Source: Anaerolineae bacterium
GTDB taxonomy: Bacteria; Chloroflexota; Anaerolineae; Epilineales; JAHCIE01
Length of the DNA: 64,000 bases
Direction of reading: 5' to 3'
Assembly (NCBI GenBank): GCA_034431435.1
Contig: DAOUDG010000084.1
Span: 78,591 to 142,590 of the forward strand
This document shows, one piece after another, positions 54,188-60,568 of the stretch. The position numbers were made by a program, and so were the translations under genes. Below the pieces are notes generated by a model. It saw only the letters and a program-made list of their open reading frames with translations, searched no databases and was not told the DNA's origin. Within the stretch, counting starts at the first letter, position 1; each line of letters opens with the position of its first letter.

Positions 54188-55903
54188 TCAGCCTGAGTAC
54201 GCCACCCGGTACAGCACACCCGCCTGGTCGTCGGAGACGATCAGGCTGCCGTCGGGGGCGGCGATGACGCCCGCCACTCGCCCCCAGCGCTGCCCGTTGG
54301 GGAATTGCCAGCCGGTGATGAAGTCCTCCGCACCGACGGCCTGGCCGTTCTCGAAGCGGATGCGCAGCAGCTTCGGCTCGGCGGGCGGTTGGCGGTTCCA
54401 TGAACCGTGCTGGGCAACGATCAGGTTGCCCTGGTAGGCGGTGGGGAACTGGCTGCCGGCATAGAAGGTCAACCCCAGCGGGGCAGCGTGTGCGCCGATG
54501 GGCACGGTGGGTGGGGTGACGCCGCTGCAGTCGGCGCCTGGCGTCTGGGGTGTGGCGTTCGGCGGCAGGCAGCGCGGCCAGCCGAAGTCCTGGCCCTGGC
54601 CGACGATGGTCACCAGGTCGGGCGGGATGTCGTTGCCCTGGTTATCGCGCTCGTTGACCGTCGCCCACAGCCCGCCCGTCCCAGGCTGGAAGGCCAGGCC
54701 GACCGCGTTACGCAGGCCCCAGGCGAAACGCTCGTAGCCGCTGCCGTCGGGGTTGTAGCGCAGGATGGCGGCCCGCCGCTCGTCCTGCTCCTGGCAGATG
54801 TTGCACGACGAGCCGACCGACACGTACATCTTGCCGTCGGGACCAAAGACGACGGTGCGCGTGAAGTGGCCCGCGCCGCTCGGCAGGCTAACGACCGTCT
54901 CGCGCCCGCTGGGCAGGCCGTCGGGCGTGTAGCGATAGCGGCTGATGCGGTCCGTCTCCCCCACGTACAGGTACACCCCGTCGGCCGCCTGGTACAGGGC
55001 CAGGCTCGACGGCGTGTTGAGGCCGCTCAGGATGGGGGCGGGTGCGGCCGCGGTCGGCTGGAGCGCGCCGTTGGCGGTCGGGTAGCGGTAGACGCTGCCA
55101 GTCTGGTCCGCCACCAGCAGGTTGCCCGCCGTGTCGAAGGTCATGAAGCGCGGCTGGCGCAGCCCGGCGGCCACCACCGACACGCTGACGCCCTGGGGCG
55201 CGCGCATCGCTCGCGCCGGCATGTTGATACCCGGCGGTACGCTCAGCGTCGTATCCACGAGGCCGGTGGGTGGGGCGCTCGGCGCGCTGACGTCGCCGCC
55301 GCGCGTCACGAACGGCACGTTCCCATAGTCACCGTTGGCGACATAATAGACACGCACCTGGCCGCTGCCCAGGTTCTCGGCGCGCTGCGCCGCGTAGGCC
55401 ACGCCTTCGACGGTCAGATTGAACTCCGGCGAGTTGGGCACGAAGCCATCGGCGAAGATGCGCTTCTGAAGCGCGGCGTTCGGGTTGAACTGGATGACCT
55501 GGCGACCTTCGCCTTCGGCCAGCAGCGTGTTGGGCACACTTCCCCCGCTGCCTGCGCCGCGAGTAACGGATAGGATGTTGCCGTAATCGTTCCCCATGAC
55601 ATAGTAGACACGCACCTGACCGCTGCCCAGGTTTTCGGCGCGCTGCCCTGAGTAGCCCGCGCCGTTGATGATCACCGAGAACTCCGGCGAGTTGGGCACG
55701 AAGCCGTCAGCGAAGATGCGCTTCTGGAGGGCGGCGTTCGGGTTGAACTGGATGACTTGATGCTGCTCGCCCGCCGCCAGCAGGGCGTCGGCGGGCGACG
55801 TGTCGGCATGGGCGGTAGGGCGGCGTGCGGCGGCGAGCAACGTCAACGCGGTGGCGACCAGTAGGGCCAGCGCCAGTGCGCGGCGGGGCATCGATTCACG
55901 CAT
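54188..55903 (-). CDS. Secreted PQQ-dependent soluble sugar (glucose/sorbosone) dehydrogenase-like beta-propeller protein with tandem duplicated N-terminal domain
   Basis: Signal peptide MRESMPRRALALALLVATALTLLAAA. Two nearly identical about 86-aa N-terminal repeats (DNA 55271-55783). C-terminal SGDH/YliI-like propeller (MTFDTAGNLLVADQTGSVYRY...GWPRC...). Confidence 0.8.
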   Translation of the reverse strand: MRESMPRRALALALLVATALTLLAAARRPTAHADTSPADALLAAGEQHQVIQFNPNAALQKRIFADGFVPNSPEFSVIINGAGYSGQRAENLGSGQVRVYYVMGNDYGNILSVTRGAGSGGSVPNTLLAEGEGRQVIQFNPNAALQKRIFADGFVPNSPEFNLTVEGVAYAAQRAENLGSGQVRVYYVANGDYGNVPFVTRGGDVSAPSAPPTGLVDTTLSVPPGINMPARAMRAPQGVSVSVVAAGLRQPRFMTFDTAGNLLVADQTGSVYRYPTANGALQPTAAAPAPILSGLNTPSSLALYQAADGVYLYVGETDRISRYRYTPDGLPSGRETVVSLPSGAGHFTRTVVFGPDGKMYVSVGSSCNICQEQDERRAAILRYNPDGSGYERFAWGLRNAVGLAFQPGTGGLWATVNERDNQGNDIPPDLVTIVGQGQDFGWPRCLPPNATPQTPGADCSGVTPPTVPIGAHAAPLGLTFYAGSQFPTAYQGNLIVAQHGSWNRQPPAEPKLLRIRFENGQAVGAEDFITGWQFPNGQRWGRVAGVIAAPDGSLIVSDDQAGVLYRVAYSG

Positions 55904-56137: not shown

Positions 56138-57202
56138 ATGAGTGACGATCTATACGCCATCCTGGGCGTCGCCGCCAACGCGACGCCCGACCAAATCGAG
56201 GCGGCCTACCGCACCCTCGCCCGCCAGTACCACCCCGACGTCAACCGTGCGCCGGAGGCGGCCGACCGCATGCGGGACATCAACGCCGCCTACCGAGTGT
56301 TGCGCGACCCCCAGCGCCGCGCGGAGTATGACCGCACGCGCCTGCTCACCCAGCGCGCCGCCGCGCCCGAGCGCCGCGCCGAGTGGCAGGATTTCGCGGC
56401 CTTCGAGGCGCGCCGCCCGCCGCCCCCGCCCACTACCCCACCCGCCGCCTCCGCTCCGCGCGTCTCCATGCCCCTCATCGTCGGTGGGGTGTTGGTGCTG
56501 TTGCTGGCCGGTCTGGCCCTGGTCGCTCTCGGTGGCCGTGGCGGCGACAGCGGGCCTGCCTCCGCTACCCTAGTCGCCGGGAGCAACGGCCAGCGCCAGA
56601 CGCCGGGCGCGACGCCGGTGCGCGCCGGCCAGCCGACCGCGACCGGGGCCGCCGTAATTCTGGCGGCGACAGGTCCGACGGCCACCATGCCACCCGCTGT
56701 GACCAGCACCCCGCGCTCCTCGCCGACCCCGAGCATCACGCCGACGCCGACGGAGACGGCCACTGAGACGCCGACGCCGACCGACACACCGACCGCGGCC
56801 CCGGCGCGCCCGGTCGGCCCGCCCCTGGCAGTGACGGCCAGCGAGTTCTACAACGAGCAGGAAACTCGCGCCGGTGGGCGCAAGTTTCAGATCAAGTTGA
56901 ACATCCTGAATCAGGGGCCGCAGACGTTGAATCCGCCCTGGCGGCCGCGCTTCCTGGTATACGCGGGCGAGCGTCCCAAGGGCTGGGTCGAGGCCAACTA
57001 TTATGGGCCGGAGGCGGGCGGTGTGGACATCTCCCAGCAGCAGCCCCTGCCGCCCGGCCAGCAGCAAACCTGGGCCTGGTACACCATCACCGCTGGCCCC
57101 GACGAGTGGGTGCGCCAGATCGAGTTCAGCGCCCTCGGCACACGCTGGACCTGGACCTTCGACCCCGCCTTCCAGAATGCCCAGTTGAGCATCGGCCGCT
57201 GA
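56138..57202 (+). CDS. J-domain (DnaJ-like) membrane protein with Pro/Thr-rich linker
   Basis: DLYAILGV...YRTLARQYHPDVN (J domain with HPD), one TM helix (MPLIVGGVLVLLLAGLALVAL), P/T/A-rich low-complexity linker, about 130-aa C-terminal domain. Confidence 0.8.
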   Translation: MSDDLYAILGVAANATPDQIEAAYRTLARQYHPDVNRAPEAADRMRDINAAYRVLRDPQRRAEYDRTRLLTQRAAAPERRAEWQDFAAFEARRPPPPPTTPPAASAPRVSMPLIVGGVLVLLLAGLALVALGGRGGDSGPASATLVAGSNGQRQTPGATPVRAGQPTATGAAVILAATGPTATMPPAVTSTPRSSPTPSITPTPTETATETPTPTDTPTAAPARPVGPPLAVTASEFYNEQETRAGGRKFQIKLNILNQGPQTLNPPWRPRFLVYAGERPKGWVEANYYGPEAGGVDISQQQPLPPGQQQTWAWYTITAGPDEWVRQIEFSALGTRWTWTFDPAFQNAQLSIGR

Positions 57203-57217
57203 TTGTTCGGAGCCTGC

Positions 57218-60200
57218 ATGGACCTGTCCCATCTCAACGACCGCCAGCGCGAGGCCGTCACCGCCCCCGATGGCCCCACCCTGGTTCTGGCCGGGCCTGG
57301 CTCCGGCAAGACTCGCGTCCTCACCTACCGCGTCGCCCACCTGGTCAAGGACCGCGGCATCTCACCCCGCGCCATCATGGCCGTGACCTTTACCAACAAG
57401 GCGGCGCGGGAGATGAAGGCGCGGCTGGGCAAGGTCATCGGTGAGGCGGCCCTGGCCGAGCTGACCATCGGTACGTTCCACGCCGTGTGCGCCCGCATCC
57501 TGCGGGTCGATGGGCAGTATGTCGGCCTGGAACGCGCCTTCGTCATCTTCGACACTGATGACCAGACCGCCCTGGTCAAGCAGATCGTCCAGGACCTGAA
57601 TCTCAACGATAAGCTGTACCGCCCGGCGGCCCTGCTGGGGGCCATCTCCAACGCCAAGAACGACCTCATCCCACCCGAGGCCTACACCCCACCCACCCAC
57701 TGGCACGAGATCGCCCGCCGCGTCTACGAGCGCTATCAGGCCGCGCTGCTCACCAATAACGCCGTCGACTTCGACGACCTGCTGATGAAGACGGCCGAGT
57801 TGCTGCGCGACAACCCGGCCGTGCTGGACAAGTACCGCCGCCGCTACGCTCACATTCTGGTCGACGAGTTCCAGGATACCAACAGCGCGCAGTACCAGCT
57901 CGTCCGTCTCCTGGCGGGCGACGGCGGCAACCTGTTCGTCGTGGGCGACGAGGATCAATGCCTCCCAGCGGGCACGCCGGTTGCCACGCCTGACGGCCCG
58001 CGCCCCATCGAGACTCTGGCCGTCGGGAACAGGGTGACGGCGGCCCACGGGCGCGGCGTGGCGGGGGCGGCGACCATCGAGCGAGTGCGCGAGAAGGTGT
58101 ACCACGGGCCGTTAGTGAGCATCGTGACGCAGCGCGGCCATCAGCTGCGGGCCACCCCCAACCACATGCTGTTCGCCCGCCTGGGCCTGCCCATCGACCG
58201 CCACTATGTCTATCTCATGTACCGTCGCGACAAGGGCTATCGCGTCGGCCTGGCGCAGGGCGCGCATGGCGACGGCGTTCACCCCGAGTTGGTGTCCGGC
58301 CTGCGGCAGCACGGCAACCAGGAGCACGCCGACAAGCTGTGGCTGCTGCGAGTGTGCGCCTCCCGCGCCGAGGCCCAGTACTACGAAGCCCTGTACGCCG
58401 CCGAGTATGGCCTGCCGACATCCGTCTTCCACACCACAGGCCGCCCCACGGCGCTAGACCAGCCCTGGCTCGACCGCCTGTACGCCGAGATCGACACCGA
58501 GGCGCGGGCGCGGCGGCTGATGGCCGATCTTCACCTGTATGCCGACTACCCGCATCACCGCCCGAAGGGTGTGGCCGGCGAGCGTCTGCCTGACCGGATC
58601 GCGGTCCAGGTGACCATGTTCAGCGCTACGCGCCGCTCCGCTGGCGGGCAGTGGCACGCCCACCGCGCTACCCTAAACACGACGGACGCGGCGTTGCGCG
58701 AGCGCCTGGAGGCGCGGGGCTACGCCACGCGCCCCGGCCGACGCGCCGCGTGGCGCTGGGATGGGCAGCGGCTCGCTTTTGGCGAGGTGGAAGGGCTGGC
58801 GGCGGCGGTCTCTGAGGCGGGGGGTAGGCTGGAGGTGGCGCGGGCGGCCTGCCTGACCGAGACGCGCCGTACGGACGGCACGACCCTCAAGTTCGATTTC
58901 CACCCAGCCAGCCACATTCACCCGACGATGATCGTGCCGGTTCTGGAAGACGGGCGCATCGTCGACGACGATGTCGTGACGGTGGAGTGGCTCGACTACG
59001 AGGGGCGCATCTACGACCTGGACGTGACCGCCGTCCACAACTACGTGGCGGGTGGCCTTGTCGCCCACAACTCCATCTACTCCTGGCGAGGGGCTGACTT
59101 CCGCAACGTGATGCGCTTCCGCGACGACTACCCCGAGGCGCAGGTCATCCTGTTGGAGCAGAACTACCGCTCCTCCAAGAACATCCTCGACGCGGCCCAG
59201 GGCGTCATCCGTGGCAATCGCATGCGCCACCCCAAGGCGCTGTGGACGGAGAAGGCTGAAGGGCTGAAGATTCAGGTCTACGAGGCGTACAACGAGCAGG
59301 AAGAGGCCGATTACGTGGTTGGCGAGATTCAGCGTCTGGTGGCCCGCCAGCAGGCGCGCTATAGCGACGTCGCCGTCATGTATCGTACCAACGCCCAGTC
59401 GCGCTCGCTGGAAGATGCCTTCGTGCGGCGCAGCATCCCCTACAAGCTGGTCGGCTCGACGCGCTTCTACGAGCGGCGTGAGGTCAAGGATATCCTGGCC
59501 TACCTGCGCCTGGCCCACAACCCCTTCGACACCATCAGCCTGCGCCGCGTCATCAACGTGCCGGGGCGCGGCATCGGCGACAAGACCGTCGCCCTGCTGT
59601 GGGCGTGGGCCGAACGCCTGGACGTGCCGCCCTACACCGCCCTCAGCCTGCTGCGCGACGCCCACACCGCCGCTACGCCGCTGCCCATGCCGTCGCCCTT
59701 CGACAAGCGCGCCGAGCGCGCCCTGCTGGACTTCGCCGCCATCCTCGACGACATGGTGGCGGCCAAGCTGGCCCTGGACGCGCAGGCGCTCCTCGACCGT
59801 ATCATCGAGCGCATCGGCTACCAGGACTATCTGCGCGACGGGACGGCCGAGGGTGACAGTCGCTGGGAAAACGTGCTGGAACTACGCACGGTGGCGGGCG
59901 ACTACGCGGCGTTGCCGCTGGACGAGGGCCTGCCGACGCTGCTGGAGGAGGTGTCCCTCGTCGCCGACGTGGACGAACTGGATGAGAAGAAGGACGCCGT
60001 GACGCTGCTGACCCTCCATGCCGCCAAGGGGTTGGAGTATGGCACGGTGTTCCTGGTCGGCCTGGAAGAGGGCATCCTGCCCCACAAGCGCAGCCTGGAG
60101 GACCCATCCCCCGACGCGCTGGAAGAGGAGCGCCGCCTGGCCTACGTGGGCATGACCCGCGCCCAGGAGCGACTCTACCTGGTGTATGCCTTCCGCCGCG

Positions 60201-60568
60201 CCCTGTGGGGGCAGAGCAACCTCACCGAGCCGTCGCGCTTCCTGCGCGACGTGCCCCACCCCCTGGTCGATGCCAGGACCGAGCGCAAAACCGCGCCGCT
60301 GCCACCGCGCCAGGGCATCGCCGCCAGTCGCGGCCTGCCTGGCCCGTCGAGCGCGTCCGCGGCCGGCCGCAACAGCTTCAAGTTCGGCGAGCGCCCCGCC
60401 GCTACCCCGGCCGCCGCCCGCTACCGCCCTGGCGACAAGGTGACGCACCCCGTCTTCGGCGACGGCACGGTCCTGGCGAGCAAGACCAGCGGCGACGACG
60501 AGGAGGTGGACGTCATCTTCAAGGGCGGCGCCAAGAAGCTGCTGGGGAGCTACTTGAAGAAGAAGTAG
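57218..60568 (+). CDS. pcrA: ATP-dependent DNA helicase PcrA/UvrD (SF1) interrupted by an intein
   Basis: Motif I AGPGSGKT, motif Ia, motif II DEFQDTN, motif III split (VVGDEDQ | SIYSWRGA). C-terminal PcrA-type Tudor-like tail (GDKVTHPVFGDGTVL...). 1116 aa from the ATG at 57218, versus about 740 aa for intein-less homologs. Confidence 0.9.
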   Translation: MDLSHLNDRQREAVTAPDGPTLVLAGPGSGKTRVLTYRVAHLVKDRGISPRAIMAVTFTNKAAREMKARLGKVIGEAALAELTIGTFHAVCARILRVDGQYVGLERAFVIFDTDDQTALVKQIVQDLNLNDKLYRPAALLGAISNAKNDLIPPEAYTPPTHWHEIARRVYERYQAALLTNNAVDFDDLLMKTAELLRDNPAVLDKYRRRYAHILVDEFQDTNSAQYQLVRLLAGDGGNLFVVGDEDQCLPAGTPVATPDGPRPIETLAVGNRVTAAHGRGVAGAATIERVREKVYHGPLVSIVTQRGHQLRATPNHMLFARLGLPIDRHYVYLMYRRDKGYRVGLAQGAHGDGVHPELVSGLRQHGNQEHADKLWLLRVCASRAEAQYYEALYAAEYGLPTSVFHTTGRPTALDQPWLDRLYAEIDTEARARRLMADLHLYADYPHHRPKGVAGERLPDRIAVQVTMFSATRRSAGGQWHAHRATLNTTDAALRERLEARGYATRPGRRAAWRWDGQRLAFGEVEGLAAAVSEAGGRLEVARAACLTETRRTDGTTLKFDFHPASHIHPTMIVPVLEDGRIVDDDVVTVEWLDYEGRIYDLDVTAVHNYVAGGLVAHNSIYSWRGADFRNVMRFRDDYPEAQVILLEQNYRSSKNILDAAQGVIRGNRMRHPKALWTEKAEGLKIQVYEAYNEQEEADYVVGEIQRLVARQQARYSDVAVMYRTNAQSRSLEDAFVRRSIPYKLVGSTRFYERREVKDILAYLRLAHNPFDTISLRRVINVPGRGIGDKTVALLWAWAERLDVPPYTALSLLRDAHTAATPLPMPSPFDKRAERALLDFAAILDDMVAAKLALDAQALLDRIIERIGYQDYLRDGTAEGDSRWENVLELRTVAGDYAALPLDEGLPTLLEEVSLVADVDELDEKKDAVTLLTLHAAKGLEYGTVFLVGLEEGILPHKRSLEDPSPDALEEERRLAYVGMTRAQERLYLVYAFRRALWGQSNLTEPSRFLRDVPHPLVDARTERKTAPLPPRQGIAASRGLPGPSSASAAGRNSFKFGERPAATPAAARYRPGDKVTHPVFGDGTVLASKTSGDDEEVDVIFKGGAKKLLGSYLKKK
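57959..59071 (+). mobile_element. Intein (371 aa) inserted in helicase motif III of PcrA/UvrD
   Basis: Begins with Cys (CLPAGTPVATPDG, block A), block B TPNH (LRATPNHMLF), C-terminal blocks F/G (IYDLDVTAVHNYVAGGLVAHN) followed by +1 Ser of the extein (SIYSWRGA). About 220-aa central region, larger than a mini-intein. Confidence 0.85.

Follow-up and report, generated by a model that had tools for sequence, protein, structure and literature searches.

A duplicated, apparently undescribed module ahead of a putative exported sugar dehydrogenase in Anaerolineae, with a possible role in cell-envelope binding

We analyzed a 64,000-nucleotide stretch of an Anaerolineae genome (contig DAOUDG010000084.1, positions 78,591 to 142,590; hereafter the window), in which one minus-strand gene encodes a predicted exported pyrroloquinoline quinone (PQQ)-dependent sugar dehydrogenase. 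The enzyme carries two copies of a small protein module between its signal peptide and its catalytic domain. The module appears to be a small, strongly conserved and undescribed domain family. Most members have a single copy, placed C-terminally on peptidoglycan hydrolases or on virion and lysis proteins of phages. Another arrangement that recurs is a pair right behind a signal peptide, followed by varied secreted passenger domains, as in the window enzyme. We propose, at a probability of roughly 0.55, that the module binds the cell envelope and that the pair retains the exported AA12/sGDH-like dehydrogenase on the Anaerolineae wall. A first-pass annotation, made from the letters of the window, had pointed out an in-gene tandem duplication of an N-terminal domain in a secreted PQQ-type sugar dehydrogenase, and our analysis bears this out: a unit of about 82-86 amino acids occurs twice within a single open reading frame (ORF) that begins with a signal peptide. 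The duplication itself turned out to be ordinary, being old, stable and free of assembly problems, and the interest lies in the unit.

The module family and its carriers

An exhaustive profile search of 1.84 billion (1.84e9) proteins returned 493 representatives of the module at E<=1e-3 and 315 at E<=1e-10. A word-indexed protein search found 264 family members, all of them shorter than 300 amino acids, which is probably a property of the tool and not of the biology; longer members, reaching 962 amino acids and including a 579-amino-acid orthologue of the window enzyme, were recovered by the exhaustive search. The module consensus is LLaege..QViQFNPxAALQkRIFADGFVPNSpEF.....gv.Y.aQRAE.L..GeVRVYyv..gdW.nV. 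About eleven polar positions vary little or not at all within the family (Q14, N19, Q25, N36, S37, E39, Q52, R53, E55, R63 and Y65), and several aromatic residues are conserved; the family has no cysteine and no conserved histidine. Modules in otherwise unrelated carrier proteins are 60-75% identical, and no protein among the best 150 profile matches has more than two units.

The unit has no Pfam-A match at E<=1 and no credible NCBIfam or PHROG match. In Pfam scans of 219 members (86 + 133), none of the LysM, SH3b, PG_binding, SPOR, SLH, CW_binding or carbohydrate-binding module (CBM) families was found, all listed matches belonging to other domain types. Precomputed Pfam annotation likewise gives no domain for most members and otherwise partner-type families (Amidase_2, CAP, SLT). 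The initial impression that the domain is unlike known families was thus upheld, with no match to a known CBM, Ig-like or wall-binding family. A full-text search returned no paper with the motif strings FNPNAALQ or FVPNSPEF, and the literature on Chloroflexota endolysins that we consulted contains nothing on the module; one hot-spring endolysin checked carries LysM. The phmmer matches of the pair to designed pentatricopeptide repeat proteins contain no stretch that passes alone, and we rejected them as reflecting the composition of a short repeated segment.

In the AlphaFold2 model of unit 2 (residues 122-210, 86-sequence alignment; predicted local distance difference test score (pLDDT) 89.9), the module is predicted to be an alpha+beta domain of about 80 amino acids, in which two helices (2-13 and 23-30) are followed by a four-stranded antiparallel sheet. 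A model of the tandem pair (pLDDT 92.4, predicted template modeling score 0.81) is compatible with a fixed mutual arrangement of the two units. The module model has no significant match to any solved structure, and a Foldseek search against BFVD gave nothing significant; its fold matches probably reflect a generic alpha+beta resemblance, and we treat them as such.

The partners of the module were counted by a Pfam scan of 133 family representatives. Amidase_2 is the most frequent (14), followed by SLT (5) and Peptidase_M23 (4), with one GH25 and one GH46, three proteins of the GH99/GH71/WbsX group and two with Glyco_hydro_cc; CAP, trypsin and PKD domains also occur. GSDH, the catalytic domain type of the window enzyme, was seen as a partner only once, in P0125, the 579-amino-acid protein, which is encoded on the same 226,824-base contig as the Anaerolineae locus L002 discussed below. 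The module stands at the extreme C-terminus in 91 of the 133 and at the N-terminus in 18, while 15 are stand-alone proteins or fragments. In 13 of the 18 N-terminal cases a hydrophobic, signal-like stretch precedes the module, which is a pair in nearly all of these 13. Among the passengers carried behind such N-terminal pairs are a sunset domain, an HtrA-like protease and the window dehydrogenase.

The module is also encoded on 11 IMG/VR viral contigs, always at the protein C-terminus and once behind an amidase endolysin domain. At one of these loci (L074), an endolysin-like amidase gene flanks the carrier gene on one side, and genes with matches to virion-structural and tail-fibre PHROGs flank it on the other. 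A tblastn search found no module in 50,697 GenBank phage records. A large N-terminal domain without a Pfam or PHROG match is common to several viral carriers (L067 4600-6228, L072 4702-6228, L073 5044-6249 and L076 1365-2522), and its NEP...GE[TC]G motifs are reminiscent of clan GH-A glycosidases. Judging from these motifs, the domain may be an undescribed catalytic domain of a phage lysin or depolymerase.

A different arrangement was observed at L080 (7090-8306), where a stand-alone 101-amino-acid module protein without a signal peptide (P0046) is encoded 15 nucleotides after an unannotated 298-amino-acid ORF. The neighbourhood is chromosomal, with Pfam matches to RNase HII, ribosomal protein L19 and tRNA m1G methyltransferase. 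Together the two genes may correspond to an enzyme-plus-module protein divided over two reading frames.

The attached dehydrogenase and the proposed role of the pair

The catalytic part of the window protein is, by its sequence, an ordinary new member of the sGDH/AA12 family, and as such would be expected to fold as a six-bladed propeller, to bind PQQ together with Ca2+ and to oxidise sugars. It matches PF07995 (GSDH) at 67.7 bits (cut-off 25; E=1.4e-18) over residues 251-565 and profile positions 4-331 of 332, and PF22807 (TrAA12) at 31.2 bits (cut-off 30.9), so the first-pass annotation was right in placing a GSDH beta-propeller downstream of the repeat, as it was in the peptides it quoted. 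The closest solved chains are the AA12 domain of Coprinopsis cinerea CcPDH (6jt5, E 2.5e-12) and Trichoderma reesei TrAA12 (6h7t, E 5.8e-10). In the phmmer alignment to 6jt5, the segments HFTRTV (with the catalytic histidine), GLRN (with the Arg-Asn pair) and HGSWNRQPP (PQQ-binding) align with identical segments of CcPDH, whose catalytic and PQQ-binding residues are His363, Arg430, Asn431, His560, Trp563 and Asn564 (PMC6881789). An exact-protein look-up of the window dehydrogenase gave no record.

Homologues from Gemmatimonadota, Acidobacteriota and further phyla share 37-50% identity with the window enzyme over residues ~233-570. Since their match starts at window residue ~200-290, the homologues outside Chloroflexota are without the module. 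These proteins (L004-L064) are mostly about 370-410 amino acids long, with only a signal peptide before the propeller. A lipobox (L-x-x-C-like) stands at the signal end in 33 of 58 homologues by a crude regular expression, and in more by eye, which suggests that the homologues outside Chloroflexota are lipoprotein-anchored where the Anaerolineae enzyme has the module pair. The fusion of the module to a PQQ dehydrogenase appears to be confined to a narrow Anaerolineae lineage.

CcPDH, of AA8-AA12-CBM1 architecture (6jt5/6jwf; PMC4332668, PMC6881789), and TrAA12 (PMC6881810) are the closest solved relatives of the catalytic part. Like CcPDH, the window protein is predicted to be an extracellular PQQ dehydrogenase with an appended module; unlike it, the window enzyme comes from a bacterium and lacks a cytochrome domain, and its module is N-terminal, duplicated and unrelated to CBM1. 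Acinetobacter calcoaceticus sGDH (1c9u), Escherichia coli YliI/Asd (2g8s), the Thermus thermophilus enzyme (2ism) and the Gemmatimonadota and Acidobacteriota homologues share PF07995 and export with it, but the module pair is found only in the Anaerolineae orthologues.

What, then, does the module do? It is common to four mechanistically different classes of peptidoglycan hydrolase and to phage lysis and virion proteins, and the simplest explanation is that these proteins have a substrate-side ligand in common. Such recurrent fusion is the mark by which we provisionally place the module in the envelope-binding class, a class defined by function and not by sequence, and the partner census agrees with the earlier idea that it may bind a surface or a carbohydrate. 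The invariant polar residues and the conserved aromatic ones would also fit a glycan or peptide binding site, although this is suggestive only.

We then propose a model for the role of the pair in the window enzyme. The ligand of the module would be peptidoglycan or a wall-associated polymer, and the signal-peptide-proximal pair would hold the exported PQQ-dependent sugar dehydrogenase on the cell wall. The pair would in this way do the job of the lipoprotein-type anchor apparently present in the Gemmatimonadota and Acidobacteriota homologues, and the two copies may add avidity. Chloroflexota are increasingly taken to have no outer membrane, and a preprint describes them as probably monoderm (bioRxiv 10.1101/2025.08.19.671072). 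If the model holds, sugar would be oxidized at the wall surface, and the enzyme would illustrate one way for a bacterium that lacks an outer membrane to keep hold of a protein that stays in the periplasm of diderms.

It is tempting to speculate further that the module is a new fold and sequence family of envelope-binding domains in Anaerolineae/Chloroflexota and their uncultured phages, and that the pair is a general wall-anchoring cassette that has replaced the lipoprotein anchor of the PQQ dehydrogenase; we hold this wider proposal only tentatively. Known wall-binding modules (LysM, SH3b, PG_binding_1, SPOR, Cpl-7/CW_7 and SLH; reviewed in PMC6403190) offer a parallel. They too are small autonomous modules in one or two copies, found C-terminally on amidases, lytic transglycosylases, M23 peptidases, muramidases and phage lysis or virion proteins, and reused to place other secreted enzymes. 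The module described here differs from them in having no sequence match to those Pfam families and a predicted fold with no significant counterpart among solved structures, and in that its binding is what we infer here. If it does bind the envelope, it would be a new class among wall-binding modules, and could be used to probe the envelope of Chloroflexota, which is still poorly understood, and to target engineered lysins.

One alternative is that the module is a substrate-targeting CBM. Its ligand would then be an external polysaccharide on which the attached enzymes work, in the manner of CBM1 in CcPDH, and not the envelope of the producing cell. The AA12-like propeller lends itself to this idea, since the fungal AA12 enzyme CcPDH does carry a CBM, and so do the partner glycosidases that are not peptidoglycan-specific (GH99/GH71, GH46 and Glyco_hydro_cc) and the GH-A-like look of the unannotated N-terminal domain in several viral carriers. 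However, the dominant partners are the four classes of peptidoglycan hydrolase, the phage carriers stand in lysis or virion contexts, the passengers include non-glycan ones (HtrA-like protease, sunset domain and CAP), and the very high conservation across partners suggests a single invariant ligand. We consider a CBM of this kind unlikely.

Slightly less probable still is a protein-protein interaction element, either inhibitory or regulatory in the manner of Ivy or PepSY or acting in dimerisation, that would control or oligomerise the enzymes. The module was compared with Ivy, the inhibitor of vertebrate lysozyme (1xs0), and with YpmB/PepSY (2gu3), and it did not qualify as a member of either family, as judged by a family hidden Markov model (HMM) match and, for Ivy, by the conserved Cys-flanked inhibitory loop.

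Age of the duplication

A repeat search of the window found one direct-repeat family at the gene, with a spacing of 258 nucleotides (55340-55533 against 55598-55791, 83% over 194 nucleotides). A tblastn search with unit 1 recovers unit 2 at E=1.5e-36, well outside what chance would give, and has no further match in the window; Tandem Repeats Finder (TRF) did not call the repeat. The first-pass annotation described the two units as nearly identical at the DNA level. This holds for the stretch of about 81 nucleotides that it quoted, which is the best-conserved third (76/81), but not for the full 258 nucleotides, over which the ungapped identity is 69%, rising to 87% in a 162-nucleotide core. At the protein level, 53 of 86 residues are identical; across the 82 residues that the profile HMM covers, the identity is 71%.

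We scanned for orthologues with one genome per species, and two full-length ones were found, both with exactly two units. L001 is an Anaerolineae metagenome-assembled genome (MAG; TGS_CHL1) that is syntenic with the window at about 90% nucleotide identity and whose dehydrogenase is 93% identical; in L002, another Anaerolineae MAG, the dehydrogenase is 68% identical. A third orthologue (L003) is a fragment that stops at a contig edge. A recent duplication would leave the copies more alike within a genome than the orthologues are between genomes, and the opposite was observed: between the window and L001, unit 1 is 96% and unit 2 is 93% identical, whereas the cross comparisons give 70-71%, equal to the value within a genome. 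The unit-specific states are thus preserved between the two lineages, with no sign of homogenisation since their split.

Substitution rates, estimated by the method of Nei and Gojobori (NG86), agree with this. The number of synonymous substitutions per synonymous site (dS) that separates the two units of one gene is 0.61 for the window and 0.65 for L001. For orthologous units of the window and L001 it is 0.20, a third of the between-unit value, with a ratio of nonsynonymous to synonymous rates (dN/dS) of 0.16, or 0.06 for the comparison of the two unit 1 copies; the propeller gives a dS of 0.33 and a dN/dS of 0.12. Measured against the sampled relatives, the duplication is ancient, and purifying selection has kept it.

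The suggestion of a very recent duplication or ongoing concerted evolution is not supported by these comparisons, although two observations lean towards it. Of the 58 positions with identical amino acids in the two units, 43 share the codon as well, where genome codon usage predicts 31.5 (z=3.2) and cross-species unit pairs, as an empirical baseline, share about 61%; and the dS of 0.61 between the units is lower than that between the window units and those of L002 (0.81-0.95). The excess in codon sharing is modest, and it is equally large in the between-genome cross comparisons of the window and L001 (43/58 and 40/57), so it predates their split. The lower dS between the units makes an old, partial gene conversion in the window/L001 lineage possible. 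Furthermore, with 71% identity, unit 1 is less like unit 2 than are the units of unrelated proteins (77%), which indicates that the likeness of the two copies mostly reflects family-wide conservation and GC-rich codon bias.

Across all two-unit proteins, a comparison of unit-1 and unit-2 clades favoured positional pairing in 1030 pairs and cross pairing in 782. Intra-protein unit identity ranges from 0.25 to 0.87 in 62 two-unit proteins, and the window protein (0.75) lies in the upper part of this range. Nor is the repeat the assembly-collapse hotspot it was first taken for, as the longest exact run common to both units is 27 nucleotides and the two-unit structure recurs in two independent MAG assemblies. 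We therefore give very little credence to recent duplication, ongoing concerted evolution or an assembly artefact as an account of the pair, and the comparison of copy number among relatives that had been proposed gives two units in each of the window, L001 and L002.

Gene features and neighbouring genes

The features of the dehydrogenase gene are collected in Table 1. The signal segment, read by eye, combines a basic n-region with a hydrophobic core and a cleavage motif of A-H-A, and is kept in L001. The final residues of the structure model, at the linker, have a pLDDT below 50.

Table 1. Features of the dehydrogenase gene, in window coordinates
Feature	Position	Strand	Basis
Whole gene, 571 amino acids + stop codon	54188..55903	-	ORF list and translation; full-length orthologues L001 and L002
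Predicted signal peptide, residues 1-33 (MRESMPRRALALALLVATALTLLAAARRPTAHA, followed by D)	55805..55903	-	Read by eye from the sequence
Module unit 1, residues 39-120	55544..55789	-	Profile-HMM boundaries
Module unit 2, residues 125-206	55286..55531	-	Profile-HMM boundaries
Pro/Ser/Thr/Ala-rich linker, residues 207-245	55169..55285	-	Translation; outside the module HMM and GSDH match
Predicted AA12/sGDH-like PQQ-dependent sugar dehydrogenase beta-propeller, residues 246-571	54191..55168	-	PF07995, PF22807

A consensus scan found no terminator, and the only two promoter-like consensus matches, both inside the coding region, were not taken as functional. Antisense to the dehydrogenase gene, and spanning unit 2, is a 388-amino-acid ORF (54407-55573, plus strand). 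Its Arg/Ala/Gly-rich translation is typical for shadow ORFs in DNA of 68% GC, and we read it as one, as nothing supports it as a gene.

Two neighbouring genes on the plus strand deserve mention. A UvrD/PcrA-type helicase gene (57203-60568) contains a 371-amino-acid intein at residues ~253-623, inserted at about 57960-59071, with an above-threshold Pfam match to Intein_splicing (40 bits) and a match to Hint. The 1113 nucleotides of the intein are absent from the ~90%-identical, syntenic L001 contig, so that of these two close relatives only one has the intein. The divergent neighbour of the dehydrogenase gene encodes a DnaJ-domain protein (56138-57202) with a transmembrane-like segment and a Pro/Thr-rich region, and within the latter an 18-nucleotide tandem repeat of 2.4 copies was called at 56708-56750 (TRF score 51).
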